Assembly: GCA_050084515.1 (NCBI GenBank)
Contig: CM114271.1
Coordinates: 15,004,001-15,068,000 of the forward strand
From: Blasia pusilla
Lineage: Eukaryota
DNA: 64,000 nt
Direction of reading: 5' to 3'
A program made the position numbers and the translations under genes. Below are positions 3,201-40,291 of this stretch, in pieces. Below the pieces are notes generated by a model. The model worked only from the letters and a program-made list of their open reading frames with translations, searched no databases and was not told where the DNA came from. The first letter of the stretch is position 1. The number at the start of each line of letters is the position of its first letter.

Positions 3201-6200
3201 AGCTATCAGAAAAGTACTGCCAAGACAGCTCAAGATTCAGTAGCATCTGCCAATGAGGTTGGTCACACCAATACCCAGATTCTGAATATTTCATCAAGTA
3301 GATGACAGGATGAGGGACATGATAGACTATAATCATATTTCCGATTTGCTAGCCGTTGACAAACCTGGGCAAGGCATAAAGTGTAAGCCCCTCAGGCGAT
3401 CTACGCACGAAAAAGTGCAGAGCCTAAACTGCTTGAAGGGCACAATTTTTTGCGGTCCACTTTCTTCAAGATATTTTTGGCTGTATAGTGCTGATGTGCA
3501 TGCAATGTTGTTGGCAGGTTGCAGAGGAGACCTTATCCCTTGCAAGGGTGGTGCGGACCTTTGGTACAGAGAAAGAAGAAGTTGCCAGGTCAGCTAATTG
3601 CATCACCTGAGACAATGGATGGATTCACAGTTGCTTATCATGCACGGAGTGTGATACTTGTACCTCTATGCGCAGATACTCTAAGTGGTCAAGGAAACTG
3701 GTAGATATCAATCTCCGACAGAATGTTGCTTATGGGTTCTGGACATGGAGTTCAAATACCCTTTACAATGCGACGCAGGTAAGCACTAAAAATGCTTCGC
3801 CTCATCTTTTTAATGCACATGGAGTTGAGTGATCGTAAGACAAATAGGGATTTCTTACTTTTGTGGATCCACAAAACTTCAGCACCGAGCCTGTTTGTGT
3901 CGTTTGAGGTTGAGCTTAGGATAAGTTCCAATTCCACTGATTAACTAGCCAACAATATTCTATTGCAGAGGCACGAATTTGAAGGGAATCTCAAGGCAGT
4001 GTTCTTATGTCCAGGGGGTGGTTTTGTAGGTGGTTGCTTTGCTGATAGGAGGAGGTTATGTGATGACGGGGAAAATAACTGCAGAGCAGCTTACCAAGTT
4101 TGTACTATATTCTGAGTGGGTAGTTCATTCAACGTGGTGGGTTGGAGATCACTGGGCCTCTCTAATGCAGGCTATTGGTGCCAGTGAAAAGGTTTTCCAC
4201 CTTCTCGACCTACCTCCTAGCAAGCAGCTTGTCACCAAAGGTGAAGACAATGAATTACCAGAACTTTGTTTGCCCTAAACAATGTTACTGTCTTTGGATG
4301 ATATTTTTTGCTTCTTGATATTGGCTGGCGGATATATACCAGGTTGCACACTTGTTTTGATAGTCAAACAGACAGATATCTGAGGATCAATGGATATCTT
4401 GGTATTTTGGTCGTATGTGGACAATTTCTGTTTAAGAACTGAGGAGTCCCCATTAATTTGCAGGATCCACACTGCCTGAGCTCAAAGGACGAATACAGTT
4501 TAATGACATCTCATTCCACTATCCTGCAAGGCCTCAGGTTGCTCCTTCAACTAGGTGCCTACTGGGAAGTGCACTGTATTCAGAGATAACAAAATAGCTT
4601 ATAATCTATGTTACTTGCACTCAGCAAGGCCCCTTATAAATTATGGAATCTTATTTCATATTCAATTAATCATGTGATTGACTGCTGGTATATGCTCATT
4701 TCCAGGTTCCAGTTTTACGCAATGTGAATTTATCAATATTTCCAGGCGAACTTGTTGCAGTGGTATTCTCTCCACCCATTTTACTTTGTCTTTGATTTGG
4801 TTTCCTCTCAATCCCTCTTTTTGTATCAGTGACCTCTATTCTAATAGATGGTGGTCAGAGTTCTACTTCGCTCAGATCCAAGTTTGAAACTGTAAACACA
4901 CTCAAAGAAAGCAGATCACGACAGGGTGTCCCACTGAACCAGTTATAAGAGAGTAAATTCAGTTATAAGAAATGAATTGCATGCAGAGTTTGTCTGCAAC
5001 TTCTGCTGAGAATGGGTTGCTCGATAGAGCAACTCCTTATTAGAATACACAAGACCTGACAGGGTGACTGGAACCAAGATGCAGAAATATGTGACAAATA
5101 GGTTAGGGAGAATCCCCCAGACCAATGCACATGCCCTTCCTAGTTGACCAAGCCAACAGCTGTTGTTCAGGTGGGTAGGAGCTAATCTCAAGATACACTA
5201 CCTCAGCAGGCAGGAGTTAGAAGTGAATGAAGCCAAATAGAAAAGAGAGAAGTCTAAATAGGTTTGTTGCATCAGGAGAGGGGGGTGGTGACTGCGGGCA
5301 GGGGGCGGCAGGAGAAAGGATGACATCTCAAAGCTGAGGTGGAAGGGACTGTACATTAGGAGCACAACAGGAGTAGGCAACAAGCGTAGCAGGAAAGAGT
5401 TCTAGCCAGAAGAGATTAGTAGTAACACGAAGGGTAAATAAAGGGAGAGAAGTTGATTGTGGTAAACTTCTGGTTCGAGTCACAACTGAGCATGGTTTAG
5501 CTAACCTGTTCAGCAGTAGAGAGAGAGTCTGATGAACAGACAATTTGATCTGTATCCTTATCATGGGCAGGCCCAGACTTTTTTGTCTTTTTATTCATTT
5601 GCACCACCATTTACTACCAGATCGTCACTGGCTATCATTGTTTCTTCATTATGTTTGAATGCTCCTGTGGACTTGAGGAGGAGGTGAAGGCCATCATCTT
5701 CATTTTGGGTTGGTATAGTTAGAGTTGTCCTTTGGCCGAGCTTTGCTGTTGGACGCTCTGATGGTACTTGCAACCTCCATATTCCTGTTGGGTTATGATG
5801 TTCAATGAACCAGTGTATATAGATGGCTAAGAAACTCATGCCTGTGTGTAGATTTCCTCAATTACTTGAACTCCATACTTCTAGAGTGGTTGTATGTCAT
5901 TGGTTGTGTGTTTAATACGCTCTTCCTCCAACTGATCCCCAATGGTTTTGTCATCCGTTCCAAAATTTTTATTAGCTGATCCTGCTCCAAATGCGAGCTT
6001 TTCACTGAGTCCAAGTAGATTGGAATTCTTGAATAAAATGTTTTAGAGAACTTTAACGGCCTTTGATCTCACGAGTCCATATCTCTATGCTGAAGAATGG
6101 CAGTCCATTGAATGAGACATGTCATCAACGGACCTATCCTTGTGTGGTATCAAAGAGGGGCATATATCGACATGGATTTTCTATGAACGTTCTCACTAAA

Positions 6201-8065
6201 ATGCACCTCTTATATGCCTGGGAAAATGAGACCCAGTCACATTGTTCCTTGCATCATATTGTAGAAATTTTACTACAATTTCTTTTAATACAACTCTTCC
6301 ATGCAGTAGTTAGTTCTCTACTCATGATTTAAGGCTTTGATCTTCTCAAATGATTTAGGCACTATTTTATACCTGTCAAGTTTAAACTAACTTGACTTGC
6401 CATTTCTGCATAGGTCGGCCTAAGTGGTAGTGGAAAAAGCACTATTGTGGGTTTACTCCTCCGACTGTATGAGCCCTCTCATGGACAGGTTTGGCTTCTC
6501 ACGTTGTCTATTCTTGTTACTGCCAGCCCTACTGTGACCAGTGCAGTTGTGACACATGATTGTGCTCAGGATTGCAGTAAATTAAAGCAGGCTGGGGCAG
6601 ATGTTGACCGCTATATGTTTATTATACCTATGCTTAATAGTATGAGTAATAGCTCTTGATCGTATGCTCATGACAGCTTGTGGACCTTTTTTTGCAGATA
6701 ATGATTGATGGCGTTCCACTTACGGATCTTGATATTAAGTGGTTTAGACACCAACTCGGAGTTGTGAGCCAGGTTAACTCATATTTACCATGCCTTTCTT
6801 GAATATCCTCGTCCAGTCACATGTGGACAAACCTTCATCTGTCATGTCCTTTGTAGGAGTAGTCCAGCTTTTATTAAATTTCCTCATCCAGTCACGGGTT
6901 AAACAATCTTCCTCAATGGGGAATCCAATTTGGTTCTTGAATATCAATGTTAAGGCAGAGATTCCTTGGTGAAATCAATGAAATCCCACTTAGTTGTTCA
7001 GAGTAGCAGAAACGAGTACGAATTTCTTGAACAGACAGAGTTATCTTCTGATTCTGATCTCACCATTACATTTTTCACCATGACCTCTCACTCTCTCTTT
7101 TCAAATATGCTGCAGGAACCTCGTCTTTTCAGCATGGACATAGCTGCAAACATATCTTATGGATGTGCTAAGAATGTAAGTGCAGTGGATATAGAAAGAG
7201 CAGCAAAACAGGCAAATGCCCACGATTTCATAATGGCTTTGCCTGATGGCTACAAAACTATTGTTGACAATGTTCGACTAAGCGGTGGGCAAAAGCAGCG
7301 TATTGCAATTGCTCGAGCACTACTGAGGGACCCTGCAATTTTGATACTGGATGAGGCAACCAGTGCACTTGATTCCGAAAGTGAACACCTGGTACAGGTG
7401 GGTACTTCTAATATTATGATGTCAGTCTGGGTTCCATAGGGAAGAAAAAGCTGTGCTCCATTTCTTTCAAAATTGCTGATTAGTCCTGGGTTGGCTTGAT
7501 AACAGAAAGCCTTGGATCAAGCAATGCGTGGAGATGGCAAACGAAGGCGGACTGTTCTTGTTATTGCTCACAGGTTGGAAATATGTTCAGCTGTCTAATT
7601 TCATAGATAAGTTTGTGGAGAAGATTATTTTCATGTGGTGGTGACTATTCCTGTGATTATATCGCTGTGGAAAATCCATTGCCAAACGGCATCATGCATT
7701 CAAAATCAATTGCAGATGAGCCATCTAATCATCTACTCACTGACAGGTTGTCCACAATTCGAGCAGCTCACAGAATTGTGGTTATGCACCAAGGTCAAAT
7801 TGCTGAGGTTGGCCAACTCTCTTCTATGTAGTGATTGTAAAGCCAAGAGTTCCACTTGAATCCATTTGTTTGTTCTAACAATAAGGATCCTTGTCAATGC
7901 AATGTCACAATATCTTGCCTCTCAGCAGTTAAGAATACAAGTTTAATTCAAAGTAAGACTGACTTGTTAATGACTGTCATGCAGATTGGCAGCCATGATG
8001 AGTTACTTAGATTGGATGGTGAATATGCTCGCTTAACGAAGCGGCAGTTAAGCACGCTACCATGA
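265..8065 (+). CDS. ABCB26: ABC transporter B family half-transporter, TAP1/ABCB26-like, probably plastid-targeted; 18 exons
   Basis: GT-AG exons join in frame: 265-984, 1150-1277, 1521-1563, 1733-1777, 2234-2356, 2932-3035, 3203-3257, 3518-3588, 3676-3778, 4030-4240, 4464-4537, 4706-4762, 6414-6488, 6698-6772, 7116-7397, 7506-7573, 7747-7807, 7985-8065. Membrane domain: [31 protein letters not shown]. Nucleotide-binding domain: Walker [11 protein letters not shown]-loop VSQEP, signature [14 protein letters not shown], Walker [14 protein letters not shown]-loop IAHRLST. The Ser/Arg-rich N-terminus resembles a transit peptide. The start could instead be the ATG at 289. Confidence 0.92.
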
Positions 8066-9242
8066 TAAATCGTAAAGGTTCAATTATTTTGTTGGCTGTC
8101 CATCTCTTTGCAGGATGGTTTCTTCCATGTATTATGTTCATTTTGTGTTTACACTTTGGGTTGGTGGGTGTAAGATTCCTCTGAAGGTTTTCCAGGCCTG
8201 CAGCCTTGCAGATCTTATCATGACTTGAACATTATTGCAATCAATCAAGGGCATAATCCATCCACTTCTTTCTGTTTGGTTGTCACTTTCATGTGGCGCC
8301 TGGTGTCTAATATTGAAGGGGTTGGTTGAGGTTGTTCTTGAAGTAAATCAAAGAGCCATGAAAGGTCAGCAATGAAGCATGTAGCAATTCATTCATGTGA
8401 GCAACCTAGGAATCCTATGCTGATATTCTCATATGCATGCTGGTGAATCGCCAGCCAGCTTGATCTACAATGAGAAACCATGATTCAATTGAGTAGGGCA
8501 GGGCTTCCATATTTCATGCCTGCCCCATTTCTCTACCAATCCTCTTTTTGTTGCTTCTAATATGTCCTGAGGTTTCAGAAGTGTTACCCAAGGGGATGTA
8601 AGACTAGTTACGGCGACATGGCCCCATAGGCAAATGTATTATTTGTAAGATTTCTAATATTTGTAATGTTAGAAATGTTTGAGATCTGCATTCAAAACTT
8701 TTTTCTCAGTTGCAGAGGTGACACTCGGTATCTTGTGCATATGTGGATCACTCTCTAGATTGTGGCTGTCCCTTCGGATTGAAGAGTAATGAGTGGTCCT
8801 AGCTTCCACAACTCAATAACATAATGTCACACACTCCAGTTTATGGGACACTCACTCGTCTCATTCCTTTGAATTCCTTATCTCACGAGATTTGTCATCA
8901 TTTGAATTACTTGTGAAGATTAGGATAGTTTGGCCATTTTTAGTATAATCATGATATAGTCTGAGTAAAATGGAAGCCATTCATAACTAGTGCGTAGTCC
9001 TTTTCCCAACCCCTTAAAGGCACCTGTTTCTAAAAGTACTTGTCAAGTGCTAAATTATATTAAATTTATATTTTGAGTCAACTAAGTGATCAAAAGTGCT
9101 CCAAATATATCAAGATTTTAAAAAATACTAATATATTTGGGGCCGGAAAAATCGACACAACTTTAGTTGGAAACTTACTGCGAATCTAAGATATTAAGTT
9201 GGTTTCCATGCAGTATAATTCATCAAGAACTTTCAAAAATTC

Positions 9243-9366
9243 GTTTGGTAAAGAGGTGAAGGAGGAAGTCTGGAATGGTTTTCTTGAAGGTTATGAGAAT
9301 CAAAGACTTGTTTGGTAAAGAGGTGAAGGAGGAAGTCCGGAAGGGTTTTCTTGAAGGTTATGAGAA
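9243..9366. repeat. Two-copy tandem duplication, period 67 bp
   Basis: GTTTGGTAAAGAGGTGAAGGAGGAAGTCYGGAAKGGTTTTCTTGAAGGTTATGAGAA starts at 9243 and again at 9310. Confidence 0.9.
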
Positions 9367-11493
9367 GAGAGAAATATCAATATTAACGAGGCCTGTTGAG
9401 GAATAGCGAAGGAGAAAGCCATCAGGAAAAGCGCTTTCTAGTTTGATAAGTTCTATAGGCACAAAAGGACGACCATGTCCTCTAATAAGTTTTTAATTTA
9501 GGTGTGATGTTTGTGGAATGTTTTGATTTCTTTAAATTACATTAAATTACAATTTTACAATGTGTGTTCAAGGGTTTTAACACTTTTTTTAAATTTCAAA
9601 TTTAATTTAATTTATTCAAATTGGTTAATTCCATGTTTGGAGATATTTTCATCTTTCCCTCATCATAAAAATTTGTCTTCAATTTTGTCTTGGTATTTTT
9701 CTCATCTTACATATTGACTAGTTTAAGGGCGTGTGACACACGGGTTTCTATTACCTCTTATAATTAGTTTTCACATTTTTAAATGTCATTTCAAATCAAG
9801 AAAATTGGTCACGTTGGTTGAAAATAACAAGTGTCGAGAGGAGAGGAGTTTGCAAAGTGGAAAGGCACTCTCCCATGACAATATAGATTTCCTTCATAAG
9901 ACACAAATCTATATTTTTATGGGCATATGAATGTAAAATTTTCTTAATAGAATACATTTTCTTCAAATTCTCGGATTAGTTTGGTTTCTTTTTTTCATTA
10001 AGACTTGTAAACTAATGTTATGACCACATTTTTGTTTAATAATTTTAGTTGGATGGCACCACCATTTCAAAGGAACCGAAGAGCTACCTTACTCAAAAGA
10101 ATGTCCCACTAATTTTTTAGACCAGGTCTTTAAGGACAACACCATTCCATGGAATGAGCAACTTGTATGTCGATGATATGTTATAGGGTGTGCATGGTTC
10201 CTCAATGTTTCATATATACGGCAAAACTTCTATCTTTTGCGGTAGTTTAAGAACACTATTGTTTAGAGGGGGCTTAAGAAACTCCAAATCATCCGAGTTT
10301 GTATTGACCCCATGGGAGGAGTCTACCATATCCGTTAGACATGGCATACATCTATCTCTACAATGCTTGCACTTAGGACCTTTAATCTACAATGTTTACA
10401 TAAAGAGTGCTCTCTTCATAGAAATAACTAGTGTGCCTAGCTTGACACTCTATGCACAAATATTTTATTTTATTTTGTTGCCCATGTTGTTGCAAAATTT
10501 CCTTGCTGCCCCAATACCATGTGTCAAGCAAAAAGGCTACTATGGTGTTCCTATTATGTGCAAATTTTTTTGTTGGGTTCCTCCAATGTTTATTGCACAC
10601 GTGGATTTTTGTGGACTTGGGTCTCTACTTCTCATTGTTTGATTTGGCACAAACTTGCGTTTTTAAGGAGGGTTTACTTTGAACTCATAGCCTTTCCTAA
10701 ACATCACCCTCTCGCCCCTACAATTTTGACATAATTCGCATGCATTCTTGGTTTGCATTTGTTGAACGGTGCGCACGTTCAAGCTACATACGAGAGAGAA
10801 GCAAGAAGACGATTGCATCGCATTCAACTACACGATTTGTCTTCATTCCAACATTGATTCTACAATGGAAGAGTGATATAATTGTATATTAGAACACTTT
10901 ACAATAGCAAGCAAGGAGTATATAGCGCACCACTTATGAATGAATGGATTATCATTTAGCACACCGTTGCATACGGGGCTAATATAATGGATTGAAAGTT
11001 TGGGGTGGTAATGTTTGGCTACAATTGCAAAATAGATAACAGAGTCAACCTTAGGGTTTGGTTCCAATTGCAAAATGGAAAACATGGTCAACCTTAGGTA
11101 TGGGTTGTAAGGGTAAGGGCATCTCCACCCCACCAAGGATTATGAAGGACTTGTTGCTTAGGTTTCCACTATATTTTTTGTTTTCCACACGGCAAGAATG
11201 AGCGTTTTGTAGATTGTCGTGCGAATCCACATCGTCATACAACATACATCGCTGACAAACCATACTCACATACATATATAACATAGACGAGAGTATCCAC
11301 AAACACAAGTGTACCACAACTCGCCCCCCTAACTGGCGGTTAGGTCCCTCTAACTCCCAGGTAGCCCTATACATCTACTACATGCTATACACCTTCTTGG
11401 GTGCCCGAATCAGAAGGCCGGGTGCTAGGTTGCCCCATCGTTAGTCGCACATCTGTAATCCATATCATGCAAAGATTAAGTCATCTACCTCTC

Positions 11494-11634
11494 CTAAGTA
11501 CATCGAGGACAAACCCACCTTCCAGTAGGAACAACATCCAAACGTGGAGTCAAACACCTCATGTGCCAACCCCTAGAACACCGATCACACACCAACATAC
11601 GGGCTGCGTTACCAGCAGACCCACACAACATGCA
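11494..11634 (-). pseudogene. PHD finger (C4HC3) at the C-terminus of the retrotransposon integrase
   Basis: CMLCGSAGNAARMLVCDRCSRGWHMRCLTPRLDVVPTGRWVCPRCT* has all eight zinc ligands plus the conserved W before the last CxxC. It is in the same ORF (11494-12024) as the integrase tail RFHVGDYVYL. Confidence 0.92.
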
Positions 11635-14600
11635 CCTCAAGCTAGCACGTATCATGGCTAAGCTTGGGTCAACAGTACCATCGACATTTGGAAGATGACA
11701 TGGCGCACAATTACGCATATGGTCCTTCCAAACAACTCCATCACGACCCTCCAACATGAGAACTCCAGAAGCTAACACCTCGCGCACTCGTAAAATAGTG
11801 CGGCCTGCCGTCACATCCAACGTTGTCGGTGCAATCTGCTGCAAATAGACATAGTCCCCCACATGGAACCTACGAATCGATGGTCGATAACCTCCACGAA
11901 TGGTTGCATACCATAGCAACGTATCCCTGTGTTGAGCAATGGCAAGATTCTCAAAGGTGTTGGCATAACTCTCCAAAAGAGCTCCGGCTGAGAACACACC
12001 CTCATCCACATCTCGGGTCATCAAGGTTCACCACCTCACTAGACTCGACAATTCTTTCTTTGGCAAGTCCGGATCTCGGCCGTATAAAGAAAATAAGGTG
12101 AGAAGGAAGCCAAGGATGCTTGGCGATCGAACCTATACCCCATGGCTAACCATGGCAATCGAATATTCAGTCTCCAAGATGCCCTTCAGAGGCCATACTT
12201 GCGCAATGCCCTCTTCACCGTCTGAACCACACACTCAGCCAAACCATCCGCCTCTGGATGATCTCGAGACGTGGTCCGATGATCAATCAACGCCTTGTCA
12301 CACAAGACTTGAAACTCACCTGAAACTCTGACCTGGTCGGTCAAGACTTGGTGGTGCACCAAAATGACTAAGCACTCTATCCAGAAATGCATACGCCGTT
12401 CCTCACTTGCCTTGTCCGGTAATGCCACCAACTCAATCCACTTGGAGAAGTGCTCCACCATCACCAACACATATCGATGATGATGTCGCATACCAACGGT
12501 AACGGTCTCGCAAAGTCCACACTCCAACGGTAACCCAAACCCATAATAGGCAAGGGGTGTAATTGTGGTGTAGGGGCATTAAATGATGCCCTCACCCGGT
12601 CACAAACCATACAACGTGACACCAACTACTGCACCTGAGTATGCATGCCACGCCACCAATACTGGCCAAGGAGTAAGCTATACGTACGCTTTACCCCAAA
12701 ATGTGCCAACTCCTCATGGGCATGTTGCACAATGCGCTCTCTCTGAGCCAAATGTGGCACTACTCGTACTCTACCATCCTCCCACACGCGTAGAATATGT
12801 GTTCCCTCCAATCGATACCTCTTAGCACGTTGAAGAACACGGTCTCGCTCCTTGGCACTCACTATGCCTGGCACCCTACTAGTCCGTAGGAACTCCAACA
12901 CCAACGCATCATCATGAATATCAGGCTGATCCGTACCACCATCTCCAACCTTAGGATCTGAAGGCTGGCCATCTACCCTCTGACTAGAGTAAGATATCAT
13001 GTGGTCCTCCATACTAGAGTCCACCCCTAACCAACATAAAAAGGCGGATGCATGCCAACCTGGCACCATCTCCTCATCAACCTCGCCATGCCATCTAGCC
13101 CCAGTTGTATCCTCTTGGCTAGTACATGGGTTCCTACTCAACCCATCAGCATCAAGGTTGGCAACTCCAGGTCTATGTACCACCGGAAGTCATACTCTGT
13201 AAGATAAGAGCCCCCGTGCAAGCTTCCCCTGTAAAGCTTGTCCGACTCCATCAACCACTTGAGCGGATGGTGATCAGTAACAAGGGTAAACTTTGTGCCG
13301 AACAAGTAACACCTAAAGTGTGCCACACCCACACTCTTGCCAAGCACTCTCCCTCATATGAACTATAGCGACTTCGCTGCATTATTCGAACGACTTGCAT
13401 AGGCCACCACAAACTCCATGTGCTCATCATCATGTTGTGTCAACACCGCTCCAAGTCCCAACCTACTCCAATCGTGTGTAATCTGAAATGGGCGCCCTCG
13501 ATAGGTCTCCTCAAGATAGGCGCCGCCACCAACTGGGCCTTAAGCTCCACAAACGCTCTCTCTGATCATCTCCCGAGGTGCCACTCTTGATCTGATTTCA
13601 GCAATTGGTTCAAAGGCTTTGCCATAGCACTAAATCCCTTCACATACCTCCGATAGTAGTTCGCCAATCCCATGAATGCTCAAACTCTACTCACATCTAC
13701 CGGACGGAATAAGTGCAATAGCCTCCACCTTTGCTTGCTTTGAACTCCCAAACCACCTGGATAGATCACATGACCCAAGTACTCAACATCCTCATGGAAG
13801 AACTTACACTTTCCTGGATGCAACGTAGACCATGAGCTTTCAACCGCTCAAACACCATCTGCAAATGTATGTGATGCTCCTCCACCATGTTACTGAACAC
13901 CAAGATATCATCAATGTAACACCGAACAAAATCCAATCTTGCTAGGATCCTGTCCATCACTCTTTGAAATTCGGCAGTGCATTCTTCAACCCAAAGGGTA
14001 AGAATTTCCACTGGTACAAACAATCCTTGCCATGAGAGTTGACACCCCAAAATCTTTGTCTTGGCCTTGTCACTCTCCCGAATCGGCAATTGATGGTATC
14101 TGCCGAAGATCCAAATCTGAAAATCTTTGCCTGTCCCACCACATCAAAGATCTCCTCAGGTGTAGGCATGGCATACCTATCGGCCTTGGTTTGCCGATTG
14201 ATAGGGACGGTAATCTCCACACATCCGCCTATCCGTGTAGTTGCCATGCATATCCTTTTTAGCGAGCATGCATGAAGGGGCGATGCATACTCTCCATGCG
14301 ACAACTCCACTAATCCAGCCTCCAAAAGGTCCAACGCCCTACTGAATCAAGTCCCTCTCCATATCACTATATCGGTAGGGACAACGGAAGATTGGTGTAT
14401 CACTAGCCAAATCAATCCATACCGGGTCCAACCAGAGAACCCAACTCCTTCATGCTAAAGGCAAAACAACTCCTATAAGCACGTAGGAAGCGTGTCAGCG
14501 TCGTTTCTCACCTCCCGTAAGCTTGGGCCCAAGTAATGGCTCCCAAGTCTCCTCCTTTGGCACACTAGAGGAGAGAGCGATGCCATTGGCGCTCGCAACC

Positions 14601-14834
14601 CCCTCACAAGATGGTACACCCTTAGCTACAACATCATCGAGAAAATAACTCCGCCACCAAAGATGAGCAACCAACTCCACATGCCCAGCCATTACATACC
14701 ATTTACTCCAAGGATGCAAAATACTACTCTCCTCGCTTGACCGATGCCTCTACCGTCCGGTAGCCATCGAGCTCATTACAAGGGGTGGAAGACCCCAGAC
14801 ATAGTCCAAGAAGTCGTATTTGCTCGCCATACCA

Positions 14835-15785
14835 AGACTCAAAATCCAAGTCAAACAATTTAGGTCCATGGCCTGACCCAACACATGACGTCGTGAAGCC
14901 TCGAAATAGAAGCAACCATTTGTCACACGATAGCAAATCCCCCATCGACGCTCTCTCTCATCAGCGTTAGGCTCCACCAACTGTCGCACATGAGAATCCC
15001 ATACTAGCCCCGGACCACCTTCCCTGTAGGCATGTGACGAGGGAAAACTCAAAAATGTGGGTAGTGCCATCCTAGGATGGCCCACACGGTTCACCACTGC
15101 CATGGGTGACCGATCAATAACCCTCACCACTTGAGAAAGTCGCCCAAGATATCAAGATACTATCCCTTTGTAAGGCGAGGATCATTTGCCTTTGCATCAT
15201 ATGCTCGACGTAGAACCTTCCTAGGCAACAAGTTTGTCCACCACAAGCGTGGATGATGTGCACGCGAGCCAACTCGCGCTGCATCCAACAACACCGCTGG
15301 TCCAATCCAAGACCGCACCTCATAAACACTCGCCATCATCCGGGTCCGAGTGTCACCCAACAATGGAACATTCTCGAATGTAAGCTAGAGCACGTGCCTG
15401 ATGAACTTGAAGATTTCGTAACACCCGTAACATCTCCCAAAACAATCGAGACCTAGGGTCATGTAATCCCTCACCCCGACCAGCACGTGTATGACCCTGA
15501 CATGGCCATCCAGCAATCACCAAATCCACAGGACCAATCCTCTCAAGGTCCTGCGCCCCAACAATGCAATGTGTGATGGTAAAAGCATTTGGTACCCACG
15601 AATAGCGATGGCGGCAACAACTCAGGGTATCTCGCATCAAGCGACTTATATGTCGAGATGAGACTCTCTGGGCCGTCTCATCTCGCTCCACATACACGTA
15701 TCTCCACACAGGAATACCGGCCTGCAACACTGCCGCCAAACCAGTGCTAATCCCACCAAAGAGATCTAACACACAAATGCCCTCC
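14835..15785 (-). pseudogene. DNMT3-like cytosine-5 DNA methyltransferase domain within the pol of copy 1 (frameshifted)
   Basis: Motif I ICVLDLFGGISTG; motif II YVYVE; catalytic motif IV DLVIAGWPCQG (~15494-15514); motif VI ENV (~15370, after a small frameshift); motif VIII LDAARVGSRAHHPRLWWTNL; motifs IX-X EPNADERER...SRRHVLGQAMDLNCL. Confidence 0.92.
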
Positions 15786-16932
15786 GGCGGATCGCCATAC
15801 AATGGGTGTAGTATCCAAAGGGGATAACCAATGGACAGAAGTAGGAGTCCGCCGTGGGGCCTCCCCTTCCTCGTGAGGTATAATGACCTCACACCAAGCC
15901 TCTGCACTAGGCGATCGCCTCTGCCGTAGTGCACCGCTGAACTCCAAAGTGGCACATCCAACGATGAGGATGCCCTTTGCTGCAAAAATAGGGACCTCCT
16001 CTACCTCTCTCATGCGCAGGAGAATCCATAGCGAAACATTACCCTCCAAAAGTCTCTGGCCAAGTGACTACTCCACTAAAACCAGCCCACAGGATGCTAA
16101 CACTTGTTGGGAAGAACCTCTGGTTGAGCCCGAAATAAATCTCACAGAACTTGGCTCATACGTCCATCCCGGACTGCCAACCTGGTCTATAAGACGCATT
16201 TGTCTCGATCCAAGTAATCCATCTGAAAACCCATCGGTACAATATTGCTCCTCCAACTAGTACATCATACGACTCGGGTGGTGTGACTACATGCAGATAC
16301 TCCCAACCGGGAGCTATCGGTCGCATGATATGGTCTCAAGCTGTATGAAAAACTTTTCTGTGTCATGAATTGAGACCTATCATTGGCTCCTCCAAGTGAT
16401 GTTTGAATCTGGAATGGGCAAGGCTCAAGCTCGACCTCCGAATACCCAAACCAATACATGCCGCCTTTCCCAACATCAAGGTTGGGCACGAGTCTAACAA
16501 GACTCTATCGGGTCTATACACTGTCTGTAGGACTTACCAATCGGAAGATCCCACTGGTTGTCCAACATACATACACCAGGTGTGAGCCTCTCACGATCAA
16601 TGGTGGCCGGGTGGTAATGCATCCATCTTCGCCGCTGGTGCCTGCCAAGTAGCACTGGTACTCAATGCTACTCCTAACATAGAGGGTCGCTCCACCGCAA
16701 CACCCTCATCCACCTCAACACGTGTAGCAGTAACACCCCCACGTTCACACAACGTGGCTGCTAACTGAAATACAGGAGCTAAGTCAACTCCTAAAGCCAT
16801 CGACTCGTGGCGAAAACAATGGGGATCCCAACACCGAAGTTGCCATCCGCAATCTTGCATTGATCTTTGCATCCGTGTCTACTACACGCGATGTAGATGC
16901 CTCAGTCCCCACTGTCGGCTCAATAGGCTGCG

Positions 16933-16986
16933 TAGGAACCATGGATGGAGTCCTAAGCATAGGAACCATGGATGGAGTCCTAAGCA
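16933..16986. repeat. Perfect 27-bp in-frame tandem duplication inside copy 1
   Basis: TAGGAACCATGGATGGAGTCCTAAGCA occurs twice (LRTPSMVP repeated). Copy 2 has a single unit (MRTPSMGP). Confidence 0.9.
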
Positions 16987-17274
16987 CCTCTGACAACAAG
17001 AATGACTGGGGAAGCCTAGCCTGCCTCCCAGCCTCACCCCTCTGTGGGTCCAACTCCACAGTAGCACCACGTGGCTCTGACGCTCGAGTGGCTCCTCAGA
17101 ATAGCTGCTGGTGATGCCTCGGATGCGCACACAGATTCACACTGCAACATAGGCCACAAGCCACGAACATCCACGGTGAGTACACAATCAGCCCTAACCA
17201 GATCCTCTTGATCTACAATCGAAGCTACCATCGATCTACTCCAGTTCTTTGAGTGAAATCCGTGAAAGACCTAC

Positions 17275-17622
17275 TGTCATAAAACACGTTTACAATCACA
17301 TACAATCGAGCCAAACCCACTCCACGATGGGAGAATCCAGGTCGAAGCTTGCGGGAAACACCATAGCCAAGAGCTCTACTCACTACCAAGGCTAACTCCC
17401 AACGCATAAAGCTCAACACAAAGAATCGATTTGTTCTTTGAGTGCACTCCACCTTATATCCTCCAACCTAAGAGCGGGCCCTACTGGGAAAGTCACCCCC
17501 AACTGAGTAACCCCCAACCCTATGTATGAAACCGCATCTCTACCAATCCACTACGGTCCTACATAAGGAATGGCCTCTACTAGCACACCATACTCTACGA
17601 CATAATCCGTATGGTCATGACA
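17275..17622 (-). repeat. Probable 5' LTR of copy 1 (348 bp)
   Basis: Bounded by TGTCAT...ATGACA, with a TATA-like GATATAAG on the - strand (~17453-17460). It abuts the TSD. I could not align a matching second LTR. Confidence 0.55.
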
Positions 17623-17871
17623 AGATACAAAACGCTCATTCTTGCTGTGGTGAAAAGAGAGAATGGCTGAAGATACAATCTTTATAATTAAAAGACGAGG
17701 TTAGAACAAACCCTCTTCAAGTGTTGACACCTGTCTTTTTAAGGCTCCTCTTTTGTTGACACGTGTCCACTTAGTGTTAACGAGATGTTATTTGAAGAGC
17801 CCTTATTGTTAGGAGAATGTTATTTGAAGGAAATTGAACTGCCACATGTGCATTTAACGGCAACATACTAA

Positions 17872-18032
17872 TCTATATGATCAAAAGAGGACACCTTAGG
17901 AGGGTTTAGGGAAACCCTCCTAAGGTGTCGACACTTGTCCTCTAAGGGCTTTTATGGGGTCGACACATGTCGTTTTGAAAGAGGGAGTTGGAAAATTAAA
18001 TATCACTCGTGCATAGCATGGGCATTGGCTAC
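17872..18032 (+). mobile_element. Short non-autonomous Helitron-like element with an internal perfect hairpin
   Basis: Starts A|TCTATATG. Ends in a degenerate GC hairpin CTCGTGCATAGCATGGG followed by CTAC|T (CTAG-like). The same 3' motif recurs at ~62950. Contains an 18-bp perfect inverted repeat at 17890-17929. Confidence 0.5.
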
Positions 18033-18165
18033 TCATTTTTATTTATGAACTTAGGTTGTGGGGAAAAGTGTAGTTCCTCCTCCCAAGAATCCTTCCATAG
18101 TCATTCTTATTTATGAATTTAGGTTGTGGGGAAAAGTATAGTTTCTCCTCCTAAGAATCCTTCCC
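18033..18165. repeat. Two-copy tandem duplication, period 68 bp
   Basis: TCATTYTTATTTATGAAYTTAGGTTGTGGGGAAAAGTRTAGTTYCTCCTCCYAAGAATCCTTCC starts at 18033 and 18101. Confidence 0.88.
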
Positions 18166-18674: not shown

Positions 18675-18966
18675 TCTACTATTCATACCTAAATGGCCCT
18701 TTCTACTAGTCTATTCGTACCTGAAAGTCCCTTCCACAGCATTCCATCCGCCTTCATTCGTTTCCCGGCGGAGCCGGGAGCGAGCGACTCCGCGGCGAAG
18801 AAATGAATGGATGTGGGAGTAGGTCGGCGTGAACCTGACAAAGCGCGATGCGGGGCGGGGGGATTCTCACAGCGCAGCGGATTGTCTCGGGCGGTTGATG
18901 AGCGCCTCATGACGGACAGACTTCGGCGAGAATTCGAACCCAATTCGAGCGCGCAATCGTCCGCGG

Positions 18967-21900
18967 ATGCTGGTGAAGGTGATGGAAGCGAAGACGTCGG
19001 TCGCCGAAATCTGGCAGTCGCTGAAAAGTCAGGTCGCGTCTCCTCGAAATCAAGGTCGCAATGCGCGCATGGATTGGAATGCCTTCTCGCAGAAGGACGA
19101 CACTCGCGGGCCTACCTCCGGCGCTGCAGTTCCTGCGCCCTTCATTCTCGGCATAGGTGGCCATCGATGCGCGGATCCCGCAGATCTGCGCAGCGCAGCG
19201 AGAGCTGTTCTCCACAACCTACACGAGGAGAGAGAGAATCAGAAGCAGTCGGCAGCCAAATCAGAAAACCCTCGCCATCTCCGGACACACTGTGATGAAT
19301 CTCCGGACATACTACACAAGCTCGAAGAGAATCGAGACCTAAATCAATCGACTGTCAAATGGAATCCTGCCTCTACAGGGTCGAGCTTTGATGAAGTTGT
19401 CATGACACAGGATCTTGAATCGGGTCAAGAGCAAGAGCCTTGCACCGTCAAACCAGAACGCTCTCCCCATGGAAAGCGCGATCAAAATCTGGACGAGAAG
19501 CAGAATCACGAACTGGTCGACGAAGATAAGGAGCGCACTTACAAGTCGTTGCCACCACCGGATGGAAGTAGTCCGGATGTTGGCCGTGGCATGCCCGCAA
19601 GTTTCATAGCGGGTGGGGAGCATGTCGAGGAGCAGGTCTCAGACTCAGAGCTCGAAACCGCAGAGGAGATGAAGGAGCGAAGTAACGACTCTTTGGATAC
19701 ACACGTATCTGTAATTCACGATTGGGATCATGAAAGCTGTCCATTTCAAGACGGGAGGGGGCCAAAGTCTGCCACTGATGAGGAGCTGCTGAAGATTATT
19801 AACAAAGATGCAAACTGCTTACATGATTCCAGGATTGATGTGAGGTACGAGGCCCTGCAGAGCCTCAGCCGGGCCCTACTTGGTGACTTCGTAGGAGAGG
19901 TGCGCCACCAATATGCGAAAAGATCCTCCGATCAGGAGCATGAGCAGCAGGCACAGGCTGTGGATTTCAATGCGGGTCTATTCGAGAACACCGAGAAGTA
20001 TGTATGGTGCGTGGAGGAGATTGTCATCAAAGCGCTGCTCAAAACCTTCGGCGATTCTTCCGAGAGATGTCGCTACCTTTCTGTGTCCATCATCTTATCG
20101 TACGCCGTCTGCCTTCCTAAGCTTTTCACTCCGACAATCGCACAATCTTATCCTCTGCTCCACGGCCCACGGAAAGATTAGATTCGCGGGTTCATTGAAT
20201 CGCCGATATCCTTCTAAGCTCATAACCTTCTGAAATAAACATCTGCATCAAATCTTTCTTGCAGAATCAAGGACCTAGAGCATTGATTTCGGGAAATAGT
20301 TCAGGATGCTCTGTGAACTACATCTTCTCGGGTCAATATACCCCTCGGTCCGTCGGTTGATTGAGACACCAGATATCCTGCTAATCTGCCTGCATCGAAC
20401 ACACTTAACGTTTCTATTTGCACCATCTAGGACCCAGCGCGTCAGTTCCAACAACCGTCCAGGACGATTTGTGAGCTCTATCATCGAAACAGATATAGAT
20501 GCCGACATGGATTGTCGTGAGTCTCGGTAACAGTGAACGGATTGAACAAGCGATGAATGAACCAGTGCACTTTGCCCCCCAGATTGACTACTCAGCGACA
20601 GTGCTGAAACCGTCATAGACTATCTTCAGAAGGGAAGGACCGATTGAATGAATTTGCATCAAGATACAAGAGCGTTTGATCGTTCCAGCAGCAGTGATGA
20701 AAGCATCACCGTCTGTTCGTTCCACCAGAGAAAGTGAACTAATCCTTTGGCGGCTTTACCTCCAAGACCTGTTGTCACCGGAACAAAGCCCAATTCCAAT
20801 TCGTCGTGAACGGAGCGATGCTGACATGTGTTATGTATGCGCTTCCGCAGGCTGTTGCAGTCCGTCCCTCGGTCTGTTGTGTCCCTGCTCCCTTATATTC
20901 TCCCAGTGATTTCCTCTCGCCTTCCCATCAAGTCGCTTCCAACTGAAGATCCGGCCTCAAAGGTATGCAAAGAGTTCACAGACAAGGAACGTTTGGAGGT
21001 CATCCTAGTCGAGAGCGGTCATGGGTGGGTGGTGAGCGGCATTTAGGAGCAAAAGTCTGAGAAATTTCGCATTCCTGTGAGAAGAATCTGGGCGAGGAGA
21101 GACATGCGTGGCCTGAGAAACTGGAGGGCTTACAGTGAGGGAAGAGAAATTGGTGAATTGACGATGATGCCACTCTTCGAACGTCGTGCAACAGCTTCAG
21201 TGCCAAGTCTTGAGAAGAATAGGGTGCTCAGCAACAATCTGATCGCCTTTTGAGGCAACGAGAAGATGAATCAATGAATCAAACAGGGACGTCGGATAGT
21301 TGATGGTTCCTCTTCTTCGGATAGCTCATTGGCTTACACGATCTCATCACCTTTTTGAAGGCAAGGCAATGAGAGGACGAATCGAACAGGGCTATCGGAC
21401 AGTCGATACCTATACAGTTGGGAGAGCTGAACCTCTCACAATCTGATCTACCTCTGAACTAGAAGCCTATCGACGAATATGGAGAGTTAATCACCTTCTT
21501 GTTCCGGTGTAAGACCCACTTACCCCGGAACAACGAGGTGATCAACTCTCTAGCGGCGGAAAGTGTAGTAGGTCCACGAATCCGATGGATATGAGACTGA
21601 CTGGCTGGTGTGGCAGGTAGAGGTGATCGTCGTCGAAAAATCCGAGGAGGTTCGTTTGTTGTTGCTGGAACTCTTACACGGTCTGCTAAAGAAGGCCCGC
21701 TCTATGATTCACCCCTTCGCTTCAGATGTGGCAACAATCCTCACTGCAGCTTCTTGTGATTTTTATCCGGAAGTTCTCACGGTAAGACTCTTTCAAAGCC
21801 TACAACAAAACCACTTTGACGGAGAAACAAGTTGCCACACATCTAAAGAGTTTCCCGTATTACCACATTGTCGATGCCACGAAGGTGCTCCCTCAACGAA

Positions 21901-35425: not shown

Positions 35426-37695
35426 ATGGAGGATATTTCAGCCAACAATGCATCTAGGGGTAAGAGACAAAAATCCCTTACTGATATGGGATTTATGAAG
35501 AGGACTGTCAGTGAACCAGCAGCAGAAACCAACTCATGTGAGGAGATAGATTCTCCTTCAGATCTTGCCTCTTCAAAGATTGAAGAGAACAATAGGCTTT
35601 GGAAAGACTCTTGGTATCAAGCTTTTGAATGGATTCAATTTGAGCCTCACACGGGGAGGGTATTCTGTAAAGTGTGCAAGGACTCAGGAGGGAAATCTGT
35701 ATTTGCCACATCCGGAGCCATCAATGTGAAGATTTCTGCCTTCAGAGACCATGGTAAATCCAAGGAACATAAAAAAAACTGGCTTGGGCTCAGTATAGTG
35801 GTAGAAAAACTCTACAGAAAGCTATTGCAAGCACCAATAGAAACTGTGATTTAGTGGTGCTTAATCTTTTTTGAGGAGCATACTTCATGGCTAAGTATAA
35901 TATTGCATTTTCTTCATTCCCTGGTCTCTGTACATTACTCAAATCTGGATCTATGATGCTCACAAAATCGATGTATCAGGATGACAAGACATGTGCACAT
36001 ATGAGAACATGTATTAGTTTAGTAATTCAAAGATTGCTTCTAGCTAGGGTTAGACTTAGTCCCTTTTACGGAATAATGGTAGATGAATCCACTGACATAT
36101 CAGTAATAGGACACCTTGTTGCCTTTGTCACTTACCTTGATGAAGGTCAAGTGTGCACCTCCTTCTTAGGATTGATCAAGGTTGAGAATAAGGATGCCGA
36201 GTCCATTTCATATTGTTTAGTATCCTTACTTAGGGAATGGGAATTGAATTTTGAGAAGATGTTTGGTTTTGGGTCTAATGGGGCCAACACTATGGTAGGT
36301 AGTAGGAATGGGGTAAGTGCCCGTTTGAAGAGGAATGTTAACCCTTACATGACAAGCGTCCAATGTGTGGCACACCGGACAAACTTAGCTGCTCTTGCAG
36401 CAGCAAAGAGCCCAGGGTGCAAGGAACTTAGTGATGAGGTGGATAACATTTTGAATTCTGTTGCATTTTATTTCAAGAAGATTTCTAAGAGGAAGTCTGG
36501 TCTCTCTTCTCTACAAGAGGAGCTAAACGATTCTAGGAAAGTCATGAAACGGTATCAGAAGGTCAGATGGCTTAGCAGGTGGCAAGCCGTTACCTCTTTA
36601 TGTGATAGTTTAGAATCGGTCATGGTCTACTTCTCTACTGTGAATCCGAGGGAAGATGATGGGGTAGCTTCACATCTTCTAAAGAGGTTAAAGTCCTTCA
36701 AAATGATTTACATTTTATACTTTCTGGCTGACATCCTTCATTCTATGGCAATGTTGGGCAAGTTATTCGAGATGAAGTTTGTTGATATATCTAGCGTTGC
36801 TTCTATTGTTTAGACTGAGATAGCACATGTTAGAATGAATTATGTACATGAAAGTGTAGATATGAATGCCTATCTCATTTCTCAGTCTAGCGGTTTTAAT
36901 CTCCTTCCGAACTATGGTCCTACTGATGGATATCTGCAGCGCTTGCAATCAGAGATAAGGGGTTCTTTCTTTCATTCAATCCAAATGGATAGGGATATGA
37001 CAGGAAAGGATTTAGAAGAAGATGTTTTTTTCCAAAGGAATTTTGCTGAGGCGATATGTGTAGCTTTGCAAGAAAGGTTTGAAGACAATAACATCATTGG
37101 AGGTTTTAAGATCCTCAATCCATCCCAAATGCCTTCTACCATATCCAGTTTAAGAGATTGGGGTGTGAGAGACTTGGAAATGTTGAGCTCTTTCTATGGA
37201 CAGGAAAAAAGCTTGCATGGCAGGGTGAAAAAGCCTATTCTAGATGGTGCAGCCCTCAAGAATGAATTTTTGGCCTTCAAGATTCAGGCCTTGACAGAAT
37301 GGAAGGAGAAGTCCTTCAAGGACTTATGGTGTATGGTAAGTGGTAGTCCGATCCTGAAGGCTAAGTATGCTAATCTCTGTATTTTAGGTGATATAGCTAG
37401 AGTCCAATGTGTATCAACACCATCATGTGAGAGAGCTTTTAGCATTCAGAATGTCATTAAGAATAGGTTAAGAAATATCTTAACCTCTTATCACTTGGAA
37501 GCTTTGCTGAGGGTTAATATGGAGGGTCCAAATGAGAATTTTGATGTGGATAAGGTCCTCATTTCTGCTATGGACACATGGAAACAGTCAAAGGAATATA
37601 GATTTGTATATGCTAATCGAGAGTTGTACATTGTTCCTCCCGTTGTACTTGAAGCTGCTGAGGAAGGTGAGCTTAACCCTAACCTTTCATCCTAG
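35426..37695 (+). pseudogene. hAT transposase (ZNF862/DUF4371-like), split by frameshifts into three ORFs
   Basis: TTF-type zinc finger W..FEW...FCKVC...H..SKEH; FYGIMVDESTD; GFGSNGA (expected catalytic D reads N); CVAHRTNLA; VRWLSR; C-terminal dimerisation motif STPSCERAFSIQNVIKNRLRN. Breaks near the A8 run at ~35771, at ~35870 and at ~36810. Confidence 0.92.
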
Positions 37696-38089: not shown

Positions 38090-40291
38090 CTGGGGACTTT
38101 GATAATAACCAGAACTAAACTGAAAGGTAGAAAATGTGACAGCAAAAAACTGGCATGCCAATTCCAAGCCCATAAAAAAATTGGTGATTCAAATTACATG
38201 CAGGAAATAGCCTGAGAAGGAAAAAAATCTTGGGCAAAAACCTGATAAGGTAAAAAGTCTTAGGGGGTCGGCTGAGGCATATTTCAGAAAACCTAAATGT
38301 TTCAAATAGTCCCGGTAAAAATACTGTCCGAGCCCTGTTTGGGAGGTACCTTAGCTTCACCCCTGCTACAGCGCCGGACCCGGGTAACCGTAGCTAACAA
38401 TAGGCTAAAGTGCTTTTGCGCCTAATATGGGACTCCATTGTCGCTAAGTCACCGGAGATGCATCGCTGCTTAGGGCACGGCCAGCTGATTCGTGATCCTG
38501 CGGCTAGCCACATCGCCAACCTTGCTTCCGCTATCCAGCTAACACGCCCACTACGCTGCCACACAGCTGCGTAGTTGGGGCTAGACTTGTGGCCTAGTGC
38601 CCGAGCCTACTGCCGATGATCGTCTCACTCCTACGTTCGACCCCTGGAGCGACCTAGTCCGAAAAACGTCCGTCCGCCTACGTCCATCTGGCTCCGTCTT
38701 CAACCGCGGCTAGCGCCGCTTCCGCTGCTCGCCCTCTTTAGCCACCAACTGTGCCGCAGAGCCGACATTCTCCCTCAACCGGCCGTGCCCAGTTTTGCCC
38801 GACCGACCCGTTTTAGCTGCCGACTCAGACCTGCCACGACCGTGTTTTCCCCTCCGTCCAGCCGGCTGCTACTGCCGCGACCGAGCATCTACTGTTGCCC
38901 TGGCATGTGGGAGTAGCCGCTACTCCCTCCTACTACTGCCAACCGCGATCAACGGCTCCAACTCACTTGCAGTCGGCGGCTGCACTTCCGGCCCTCTGGC
39001 CACTGATCCCGCGGCCTTGTGCCTGCGTTTTGGGGTTCCGTTGCGCAGTCCGTCTCACCGTCCGTGCGACCGTGCCGGGTTAGTGCCACCTGCCGTCAAG
39101 TTGATTCTGGCTCGGCCACAACTGATTAGCTACGGCATCGCGACCACCTCCTGGCCGTGACTCTCGGCCATGCGTGACTGCGTGACGTTGTAGTTGCTTG
39201 GTTGTCGCATCTGTTCATCCCCTAGTGACGGCCCTTTGTTCGTCTAACTACCTTCACGGCCTTATGTCCATTGCCGTTATATTAATGACGGCCATCGACA
39301 CGTTGGAGGTCCGCGCCACCATGCACTTGTTCTTGGCGGTCCACTTCACGTGCCAAAAATCATCGACCGATTGTGAGTATTGGCTAGGAGGGCAGGTAAT
39401 TTTTGTGGATTGATGGGGTCGTAGTTTCTTTCCCGCTTTGCCATGTCCAGAGAGGCAGCCGTTCGAGGACGATCAAGTACCATGCCGTGACGCCCGTAGC
39501 CGCAATGCGCCGCCAATTGCCGCATCGTGCCGCTTGTGGCTGCTCCGCACCGTTTGGATCGTGGATCCGCACCATCACTGGGAGATGAGCGTGTGTTTTT
39601 TTGATTGAGGAGGTTATGCCACCGAGTGCCGCATTCCATTCACGAGTGCCATGCCGTTTTTAGCCGTTGCGTGCCACCAGTGCCACACCGTACCGCTGGA
39701 CCCGCACTGCACATCGAGGAGATTTGAGCATTGTCGGTACTAGAGGAGTACGACTTGCTATTTGGAGGAGTTGTCTTCACAACCGAGTTGGGATCGAGGT
39801 TTTTCAGTTGCCGAGAAGTGGCATAGAATTTTATTCAAGTTACCCATTCTGGTCTTTTGCCCTGCACGTGTTAGGGAATTCCGAGTATTGGGCAATTATT
39901 TGGGATATTGGGTTTCGTGTTGATTCTGAGAGCATCATTGATGTATGGGTTTAGGGGACATAGACCTGTGTGGGATGTCCATAGTTGAGGGTGTGTCCTG
40001 TCAATGAGATGATAGGACAATACATGATTTTCCGCACCACGCCGCTTGTTACCGCACAACACACGTCTAAATGAGAGAGTGCAGCTTGAGTGCTGCATGT
40101 TAGATTGAGTGATTGCGTGATTACTTGCGAGGTTGAGAGTGATCGTGTGAGAGGGGCACGAGGGTCATCACGACGTCCTTTCGGGACTTTGAGAGGGGAG
40201 GTGGTGGACCTGAGAGTAGCTCTAGAGGTTTATCCAGAGTGGTGCAAGGTTTCGAGGGTCTCCACGCGAGAGACCACCTCGATCTCCTTCT

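Follow-up and report, generated by a model that had tools for sequence, protein, structure and literature searches.

The DNA analyzed here is a stretch of 64,000 nucleotides (nt) from the liverwort Blasia pusilla (assembly GCA_050084515.1, contig CM114271.1, positions 15,004,001 to 15,068,000 of the forward strand), which we call the window and number from its first letter. It holds a decayed Ty3/Gypsy retrotransposon on the minus strand, copy 1, whose last open reading frame (ORF) ends in a PHD finger. Nucleotides 11494 to 11634 of the minus strand encode a true PHD zinc finger, and this finger is the extreme C-terminus of a Ty3/Gypsy integrase. An earlier reading of these letters, the original prediction, had placed an intact C4HC3 PHD finger just before the stop codon, where chromoviruses carry a chromodomain, and had proposed that one polyprotein joins this reader to a DNA methyltransferase (DNMT). 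The interval named in that prediction corresponds exactly to the finger plus the stop codon.

The PHD finger and the element that carries it

The features of copy 1 are as follows, where handles beginning with P denote proteins and those beginning with L denote DNA copies of the same family.

11494 to 11634, minus strand: PHD finger (C132 to C176, nt 11500–11634), last residue (T177, 11497–11499), and stop codon (11494–11496)
11497 to 12027, minus strand: last open frame of the element, 177 aa, integrase C-terminal region followed by the PHD finger
12186 to 12578, minus strand: integrase catalytic core remnant (Pfam rve, E = 1.2e-4, 22.8 bits, under the gathering score of 32.6; P0022 residues 1149–1368, frame −3, by tblastn)
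12629 to 12748, minus strand: integrase H2C2 zinc-binding domain (PF17921, E = 2.2e-10, residues 148–187 of ORF 12626–13189)
13138 to 13539, minus strand: RNase H remnants in two frames (Pfam RT_RNaseH and RT_RNaseH_2, E = 1e-7 to 1.4e-8; tblastn)
13766 to 14416, minus strand: reverse transcriptase (RT) remnant (Pfam RVT_1, E = 7.4e-9; tblastn to P0022 residues 491–693)
14723 to 15784, minus strand: DNMT3-like cytosine-5 methyltransferase domain, frameshifted, upstream of RT (PF00145, E = 1.8e-7, 31.4 bits, cut-off 22; tblastn to P0022 and P0064)
15785 to 17097, minus strand: remnant of the protease and the end of gag (blastn to L002 and L003)

The last ORF contains all eight zinc ligands, in a pattern canonical for PHD fingers. 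Their spacing is C-x2-C-x11-C-x2-C-x4-H-x2-C-x13-C-x2-C, which occupies 45 residues from C132 to C176 and is followed by T177 and the stop codon. When the ORF was scanned with Pfam, PF00628 matched residues 132 to 176 (E = 4.2e-11, 43.1 bits, against a gathering score of 24) over positions 1 to 47 of its 47-position model, that is, over its full length. With all ligands in place and this match, the predicted intact finger is borne out.

A structural model of the 177-aa ORF was built by AlphaFold2 on a 30-row alignment and has a mean predicted local distance difference test (pLDDT) score of 78.4, with block means of 87 to 94 for the finger region (residues 131–177). It predicts a long helix (residues 14–43), then SH3-like strands (59–109), and then the finger. 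In Foldseek superpositions, the predicted finger lies 0.6 to 1.4 Å from solved PHD fingers over 46 to 51 columns. The interleaved two-zinc PHD fold is therefore a property of the predicted model rather than of a solved structure.

From high to low coordinates, copy 1 reads DNMT, RT, RNase H, H2C2, integrase core, and C-terminal domain with PHD finger, as judged by Pfam and by tblastn against P0022. The Ty3/Gypsy order of protease, RT, RNase H, and integrase (H2C2, DDE core, C-terminal domain) is found both in the window and in intact relatives. Copy 1 is collinear with residues 1 to 1513 of P0022 (1516 aa) through at least seven frame changes by tblastn, and the 177-aa ORF accounts for residues 1365 to 1513 of this alignment at 61% identity. 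The PHD ORF lies in frame −2 and the integrase core in frame −3, with the shift near 11937 to 11949. An in-frame stop at 12626 to 12628 interrupts the H2C2 domain, and the adjoining ORF (12461–12625) keeps the same frame. Homology of copy 1 to L002 and L003 extends by blastn from 17097 down to 11215 at 78 to 79% identity, and approximately 2.4 kb of the L002 gag (4967–7431) has no counterpart in the window upstream of 17097. Because of the frame changes, the in-frame stop, and the loss of gag, copy 1 is a nonfunctional fossil, and no polyprotein is made at this locus. The finger is intact in a parent protein that is broken, its frame being out of register with the integrase core. The appropriate annotation for the locus is a degraded Gypsy-DNMT3 element rather than a gene, and the local practical meaning is modest.

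The PHD tail and the methyltransferase across the family

When the 177-residue tail was used as a query against longer proteins, 77 relatives were obtained, 70 of which carry PF00628 according to precomputed Pfam annotation. The other seven comprise five truncated proteins (31–73% query cover), one with a longer-loop finger that fits the strict pattern, and one distant Tetraselmis protein. The strict C4HC3 regular expression fits 62 of 78 sequences, and none of the eight zinc ligands varies in alignments of 9 or of 30 sequences. When 1.84 billion cluster representatives were searched by phmmer, at least 174 representatives (50% identity clusters) matched the module of C-terminal domain plus PHD at E ≤ 1e-30, and 143 of the 150 matches listed span both parts. 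The finger-bearing relatives consist of RT–RNase H–integrase–PHD frames of about 1030 to 1170 residues. Named sources include Marchantia polymorpha (86% and 82% identity), Calypogeia fissa, Sphagnum fallax, and Klebsormidium nitens (51%). Thus, the PHD-tailed relatives that the original prediction expected in seed-free plants do exist, in Marchantia, Calypogeia, and Sphagnum as well as in the alga Klebsormidium, and a general lack of the finger in other family members, which would have refuted the prediction, is not what the relatives show. Taken together, these comparisons indicate that the PHD-tailed integrase is a constant feature, and indeed a hallmark, of the family.

The heavy decay of copy 1, and a finger ORF out of frame with the integrase core, would be compatible with a chance ORF or a host exon captured by this one copy. 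Because the same finger occurs at the same place across database relatives, in the 70 proteins and the 143 listed matches given above, it is not a chance match. The family-wide conservation of both finger and position refutes a chance or captured origin, to which we assign practically no probability.

The finger also sits where it was predicted to sit, namely after an SH3-like integrase C-terminal domain, where eight of 31 other Gypsy polyproteins scanned carry a chromodomain. No match to the Chromo domain was found by Pfam in the window ORFs or in the PHD relatives. To place the family, we used a quick maximum-likelihood tree of RT–RNase H, unrooted and without named references, that includes 15 family members and, from 77 other Gypsy loci, the 31 with frames of at least 1100 residues. 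These 77 are generic Gypsy loci among 80 metagenome loci obtained by a scan with general RT motifs, and they served only as an outgroup. A branch with a Shimodaira–Hasegawa-like approximate likelihood ratio test (SH-aLRT) support of 99 separates all 15 PHD-family rows from all eight chromodomain rows. By this tree, the PHD family is judged to be distinct from the sampled chromoviruses.

The predicted methyltransferase is likewise present, as documented by PF00145, by tblastn, and by the match of the L002 frame to DNMT3 enzymes. A search with the DNMT frame at 15353 to 16000 returned 48 relatives, many of them "hypothetical proteins" of Marchantia polymorpha and others from Calypogeia, Sphagnum, and Closterium. 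By Pfam and local BLAST, these are frames of gag (CCHC), protease, and DNMT of about 1250 to 1450 residues. The intact-looking DNMT frame of L002 best matches the catalytic domains of DNMT3A/3B/3C (E = 5.4e-11) and is collinear with DNMT3A catalytic residues 7 to 267. Because this match runs collinearly from motif I to the C-terminal motifs, the family DNMT is classified, on sequence grounds, as DNMT3-like and not rearranged as in plant DRM. Of 11 window-type sequences that span the PCQ and ENV motifs, 10 retain both, two Marchantia polymorpha proteins among them; P0022 departs from this in having PCV. Pfam reported neither an ADD nor a PWWP domain in the DNMT-carrying ORFs.

How the two domains are arranged is best judged where both occur in one frame or one DNA copy. 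The window contributes a second, diverged copy of the family.

40090 to 46130, plus strand: copy 2 (65–73% nt identity to copy 1; tblastn to P0022 residues 3–1200 at 43106–46082)
44331 to 44339, plus strand: in-frame TAG followed by CAG CCA, between DNMT and RT of copy 2

Copy 2 retains more of gag than copy 1, the DNMT, a partial RT, RNase H, and an integrase, and it lacks a PHD finger because this integrase ends inside its core at about 46130. The tail and DNMT searches together gave 13 proteins in which a single frame holds DNMT and PHD: the DNMT precedes RT in five, another five follow the order RT–RNase H–DNMT–integrase–PHD (hereafter the second order), and three are partial (DNMT–integrase–PHD). 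Among 140 further representatives, 39 carry both domains, all in the second order; of the remaining 101, three cover part or all of the RT-to-integrase region without a DNMT there, 94 are too short, and four have no match. The second order (P0034, P0036, P0054, P0064, P0065, and the 39 representatives) dominates unnamed records, and the DNMT lies upstream of RT in all five DNA copies examined (copies 1 and 2 and L001–L003). In the RT–RNase H tree, four second-order members form a clade with support of 100 inside the PHD family. From these frames, DNMT and PHD would seem to occur together in ORFs of sufficient length to reveal the pair.

A stop codon at the same position between DNMT and RT (TAG or TAA, then CAA or CAG, then CCN) is present in four of the five DNA copies, namely copy 2, L001 (2686), L002 (9959), and L003 (9959). 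It is absent from the DNMT–RT boundary of copy 1 and of the fused protein P0022. Just before one conserved motif, the predicted ORF1 proteins of many lineages end and the ORF2 proteins begin. These sequences suggest that the DNMT–RT boundary is a gag–pol boundary served by programmed stop read-through, and its context presumably resembles the UAG-CAR-YYA context of plant viruses. The usual order in intact window-type relatives is gag (CCHC)–protease–DNMT, most often an in-frame stop, and RT–RNase H–integrase–PHD. Given this stop, a single polyprotein would require read-through, and its position would put the DNMT in an abundant upstream product and the PHD-integrase in a rarer read-through product. 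The original prediction thus identifies the right domains and the right type of element but overstates the case for this locus, and its proposal of one polyprotein needs correction, in that copy 1 is dead and a stop lies between the domains in four of five DNA copies; in 13 ORFs both domains share one frame.

In animal DNMT3A/3B/3L, an ADD zinc finger that reads the H3 tail unmethylated at lysine 4 (H3K4) stands alongside a DNMT3-type catalytic domain. By analogy, the PHD finger might guide or license the DNMT of the element, so that methylation of the new copy or of its surroundings follows histone state. The tight co-occurrence of DNMT and PHD across a deep clade and in two domain orders speaks for such a partnership, as does a DNMT that is DNMT3-like in ORFs without a Pfam ADD or PWWP domain. 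However, the two domains are more than 1000 residues apart, and they are parted both by the in-frame stop in four of five close DNA copies and by the expected protease processing. The analogy with ADD and DNMT3 drawn in the original prediction is accordingly loose, because after cleavage by the protease the DNMT is expected to reside on one mature protein and the PHD-integrase on another. Moreover, six of seven aligned second-order members have Glu, Ala, or Asp in place of the Pro of the catalytic Pro-Cys yet still possess the PHD finger, which suggests that the finger does not depend on an active DNMT. The DNMT of the K. nitens element KnitGypsy-Dnmt3 also gave no detectable methylation in yeast, a result that its authors call inconclusive (PMC5890265). 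A reader–writer partnership of this kind is, in our view, unlikely, though it deserves to be kept in mind.

Termini and surroundings of the two copies

The outermost parts of copy 1 are two short segments, designated A and B.

17245 to 17442, minus strand: fragment of the 5′ terminal repeat, "A" (end ..CA at 17254; 75% identity to both L002 repeats, 4776–4967 and 13523–13657)
11215 to 11331, minus strand: 3′ end of copy 1 (an 11-nt purine-rich run at 11321–11331, then segment "B" of about 106 nt from 11320 down to 11215)

Homology of copy 1 to its relatives ends at 11215 by blastn, and no second copy of repeat A follows segment B. Neither a repeat finder nor self-BLAST detected long terminal repeats (LTRs) in the window. 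L003 resembles copy 1 in having only the 5′ repeat and in ending after a segment B of about 106 nt. In L002, a direct repeat of 307 nt with 94% identity (4620–4926 and 13367–13673) is cut by the contig end, and segment B is followed by the second copy of repeat A (a B-to-A junction). Contigs from public sequencing runs, one of them a DNA run, join about 17254 directly to about 11320 (an A-to-B junction). These data are compatible with either split direct repeats (A-internal-B-A-B) or head-to-tail LTRs, as in none of the records are all four parts seen together. A 49-nt inverted match of 82% pairs the 3′ end of copy 1 (11173–11221) with DNA about 170 nt past the 5′ repeat fragment (17616–17664).

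The flanks of copy 1 are richer in AT and contain two-copy tandem duplications of 67, 43, and 68 nt (86–93% identity) at 9233 to 9366, 11013 to 11098, and 18030 to 18165. Beside copy 1, a 422-codon open frame on the plus strand (18913–20178) has no Pfam match. The coding strands of both copies (12000–18000 and 40000–46000) are G-rich, with a GC skew magnitude of about 0.15 to 0.26 and an excess of CpA. CpG depletion is uninformative as a trace of methylation, since the observed/expected ratio is 0.65 to 0.67 in the copies and 0.65 on average in the window. Contigs of three public runs cover the PHD region; the RNA label of these runs is a guess, and no conclusion on expression is drawn.

Elsewhere in the window, an open frame of 312 residues adjoins one of 293 residues at 35875 to 37692 on the plus strand; the first has a weak DUF4371 match under the gathering score (E = 6e-7), and the pair resembles a remnant of a hAT-type transposase. 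An exon of an amino-acid transporter is present at 51009 to 52694 on the plus strand (Pfam Aa_trans, E = 8.5e-53). A conserved single-exon MFAP1 gene of the host at 57412 to 58677 on the plus strand shares 91% identity with that of Marchantia paleacea, 88% and 84% with those of two Riccia species, and 77 to 81% with those of mosses and a lycophyte, which places the window in a liverwort of the Marchantia lineage.

Role of the finger and relation to known systems

By sequence, the best matches of the finger in the PDB are CHD4, KMT2C/D, DPF2/3, ATXR5, KDM5A/B, PHF21A (BHC80), BAZ2A/B, UHRF1, and AIRE. The finger is 45 to 46% identical to, and approximately 1 Å from, fingers that bind the H3 tail, and fold matches consisting of the PHD alone include entries titled as complexes with unmodified H3 (BAZ2A and UHRF1) or with H3 (ATXR5, DPF3b, and MOZ). 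The fingers of CHD4, BHC80, KDM5, and AIRE are specific for H3 with unmethylated lysine 4 (H3K4me0). Because the nearest solved PHD fingers bind the unmodified H3 tail, we infer tethering through this tail. The best explanation, which we consider probable, is that the integrase of this DNMT3-clade Ty3/Gypsy family uses its PHD tail to tether integration to H3 unmethylated at K4 and that the DNMT is a separate protein.

In active members, the PHD finger would bind the N-terminal tail of H3 with K4 unmethylated and thereby tether the complex of integrase and cDNA to nucleosomes. Insertion would be biased away from H3K4-methylated promoters, by analogy with the bias of chromodomains toward H3K9-methylated chromatin. 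The DNMT would be made within a gag–protease–DNMT product, and the protease would separate it from the PHD-integrase. It would thus act as a protein of its own, possibly on the cDNA or on the new insertion, and not as part of a fused reader–writer enzyme.

The same comparisons bear on two other roles. Many PHD fingers read trimethylated H3K4 (H3K4me3), and some retroelements target promoters, so that the finger could conceivably read methylated H3K4 and steer insertion to promoters or gene-rich regions. Yet no ING-, BPTF-, or TAF3-type finger appears among the 60 PDB sequence matches listed or in the fold list, and no H3K4me3 complex is named in the title of any of the 32 fold matches at E ≤ 0.001. 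Furthermore, two places before the zinc-binding His, the finger has Gly and not the cage Trp. Methyl-lysine reading of this sort is highly improbable.

Some PHD fingers bind non-histone ligands, and complexes of the UHRF1 PHD with PAF15 and Stella are among the fold matches. In second-order members, another 230 to 470 residues of unassigned role follow the finger. These observations would suit a non-histone zinc module that contacts a host tethering factor, serves nuclear import, binds DNA or RNA, or contributes to integrase assembly. The close identity and superposition with H3-tail-binding fingers argue against such a module, as does a position equivalent to that of the chromodomain in chromoviruses, and we regard it as very unlikely.

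Several observations also weigh against tethering to K4-unmethylated H3. The H3K4me0 specificity assigned above to four of the nearest fingers is background knowledge and not a result of these searches. The UHRF1 finger is found in an entry with an H3K4me3 peptide as well (fold match rank 43). In the liverwort subfamily, acidic residues following the second cysteine are fewer than in most relatives, and the specificity of its finger could differ for that reason. Copy 1, L002, and L003 are all decayed, with a disrupted finger in L002 and a Cys-to-Phe change in that of L003. For the role given to the DNMT, the yeast result for the K. nitens enzyme, with no detectable methylation and called inconclusive by its authors, counts here too (PMC5890265, available text).

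Beyond tethering, we also considered a conserved two-part epigenetic kit borne by a deep and widespread clade of liverworts, mosses, and streptophyte algae, wherein the PHD-integrase picks H3K4-unmethylated nucleosomes and the DNMT3-like enzyme, produced in excess from the gag–protease–DNMT frame, methylates the cDNA or the insertion site, so that the element writes its own chromatin state. We offer this as speculation that is quite unlikely to be correct as a whole. If true, the kit would be a split, transposon-borne analogue of the ADD–DNMT3 logic, testable in the model plant Marchantia, for which genetics and chromatin maps are available. More broadly, retrotransposons that encode parts of the host silencing machinery are few and recently recognized, and the published streptophyte case is an alga. 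The present family offers a testable system for two questions, namely whether integration can be guided by a PHD finger in the manner of chromodomains and whether the DNMT3 of a transposon acts on copies of that transposon.

This published case is KnitGypsy-Dnmt3 of Klebsormidium nitens, described in the available text of de Mendoza et al. (2018; PMC5890265) as a Gypsy element with an unrearranged DNMT3-like domain in gag-pol, and the claim of novelty in the original prediction must be narrowed to that extent. The acquisition of DNMT3 is attributed there to the K. nitens lineage, and the repeats are described as DIRS-like (A-coding-B-A-B). The present element shares the unrearranged DNMT3-type catalytic domain inside gag-pol, and the A-to-B junctions of the public contigs and the B-to-A junction of L002 are compatible with DIRS-like repeats of that kind. 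The hosts differ, being a liverwort, and thus a land plant, here and an alga there. The DNMT of KnitGypsy-Dnmt3 is placed "in the Pol polyprotein ORF" (PMC5890265), whereas the DNMT of the present family is situated between protease and RT, in most cases with an in-frame stop at its end. A partial K. nitens protein, KFL_005000010 (integrase plus C-terminal PHD), is 51% identical to the window tail, and no DNMT-bearing K. nitens sequence is among the 48 relatives from the DNMT search.

What the original prediction held to be new survives in a more limited form. The words PHD, Marchantia, and liverwort do not occur in the text of PMC5890265, nor is Marchantia listed in its species table, although its Figure 4c or PDF supplements may show a PHD finger. 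In full-text literature, we found no report of DNMT-bearing Gypsy elements that describes a PHD finger in them or that places them in Marchantia or other land plants, and a paper on the classification of plant LTR elements (PMC6317226) mentions neither PHD, methyltransferase, nor Marchantia. Thus, three features appear to be new in print: the abundance of the family in liverworts and mosses, the constancy of the PHD-tailed integrase across at least 174 sequence clusters, and the occurrence of the DNMT in two alternative positions within one RT clade.

PHD fingers are known from other mobile elements as well, and the available parts of three reports describe them in Chlamys Penelope-like elements and Ginger1 transposases (PMC6673714, PMC8557442, PMC2836005). 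In Ginger1-9_HM, a PHD finger is among the C-terminal domains of a transposase that resembles a Gypsy integrase. There, too, the finger is an accessory domain, but the elements are of other classes, the positions are different, and none is described with a cytosine methyltransferase in those texts.

The animal DNMT3 enzymes differ in that reader and enzyme share one polypeptide under allosteric control, whereas in the present family the two are far apart and usually in separate translation products. The finger is, in addition, a canonical single PHD and not an ADD domain as in animal DNMT3.

Closer in logic are the chromoviruses, which, like the PHD family, have a chromatin-reader domain after the SH3-like integrase C-terminal domain, presumably for tethering. 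Their targeting is guided by the chromodomain (Gao et al., 2008, as cited in the available text of PMC6673714). They differ in having a chromodomain where the present family has a PHD finger, and the present family also has a DNMT. The pairing of DNA-methyltransferase domains with a chromatin-targeting domain in an LTR element has its nearest likeness in the EpiLTRs and DAM-LTRs of euglenids and other protists, which, according to the available text (bioRxiv 10.64898/2026.05.21.726589), combine an adenine methyltransferase, with or without a DNMT4-like DNMT, with a chromodomain. In the same text, these elements are stated to be distinct from those of "streptophytes (Gypsy-DNMT3)", the group to which the family described here would belong.

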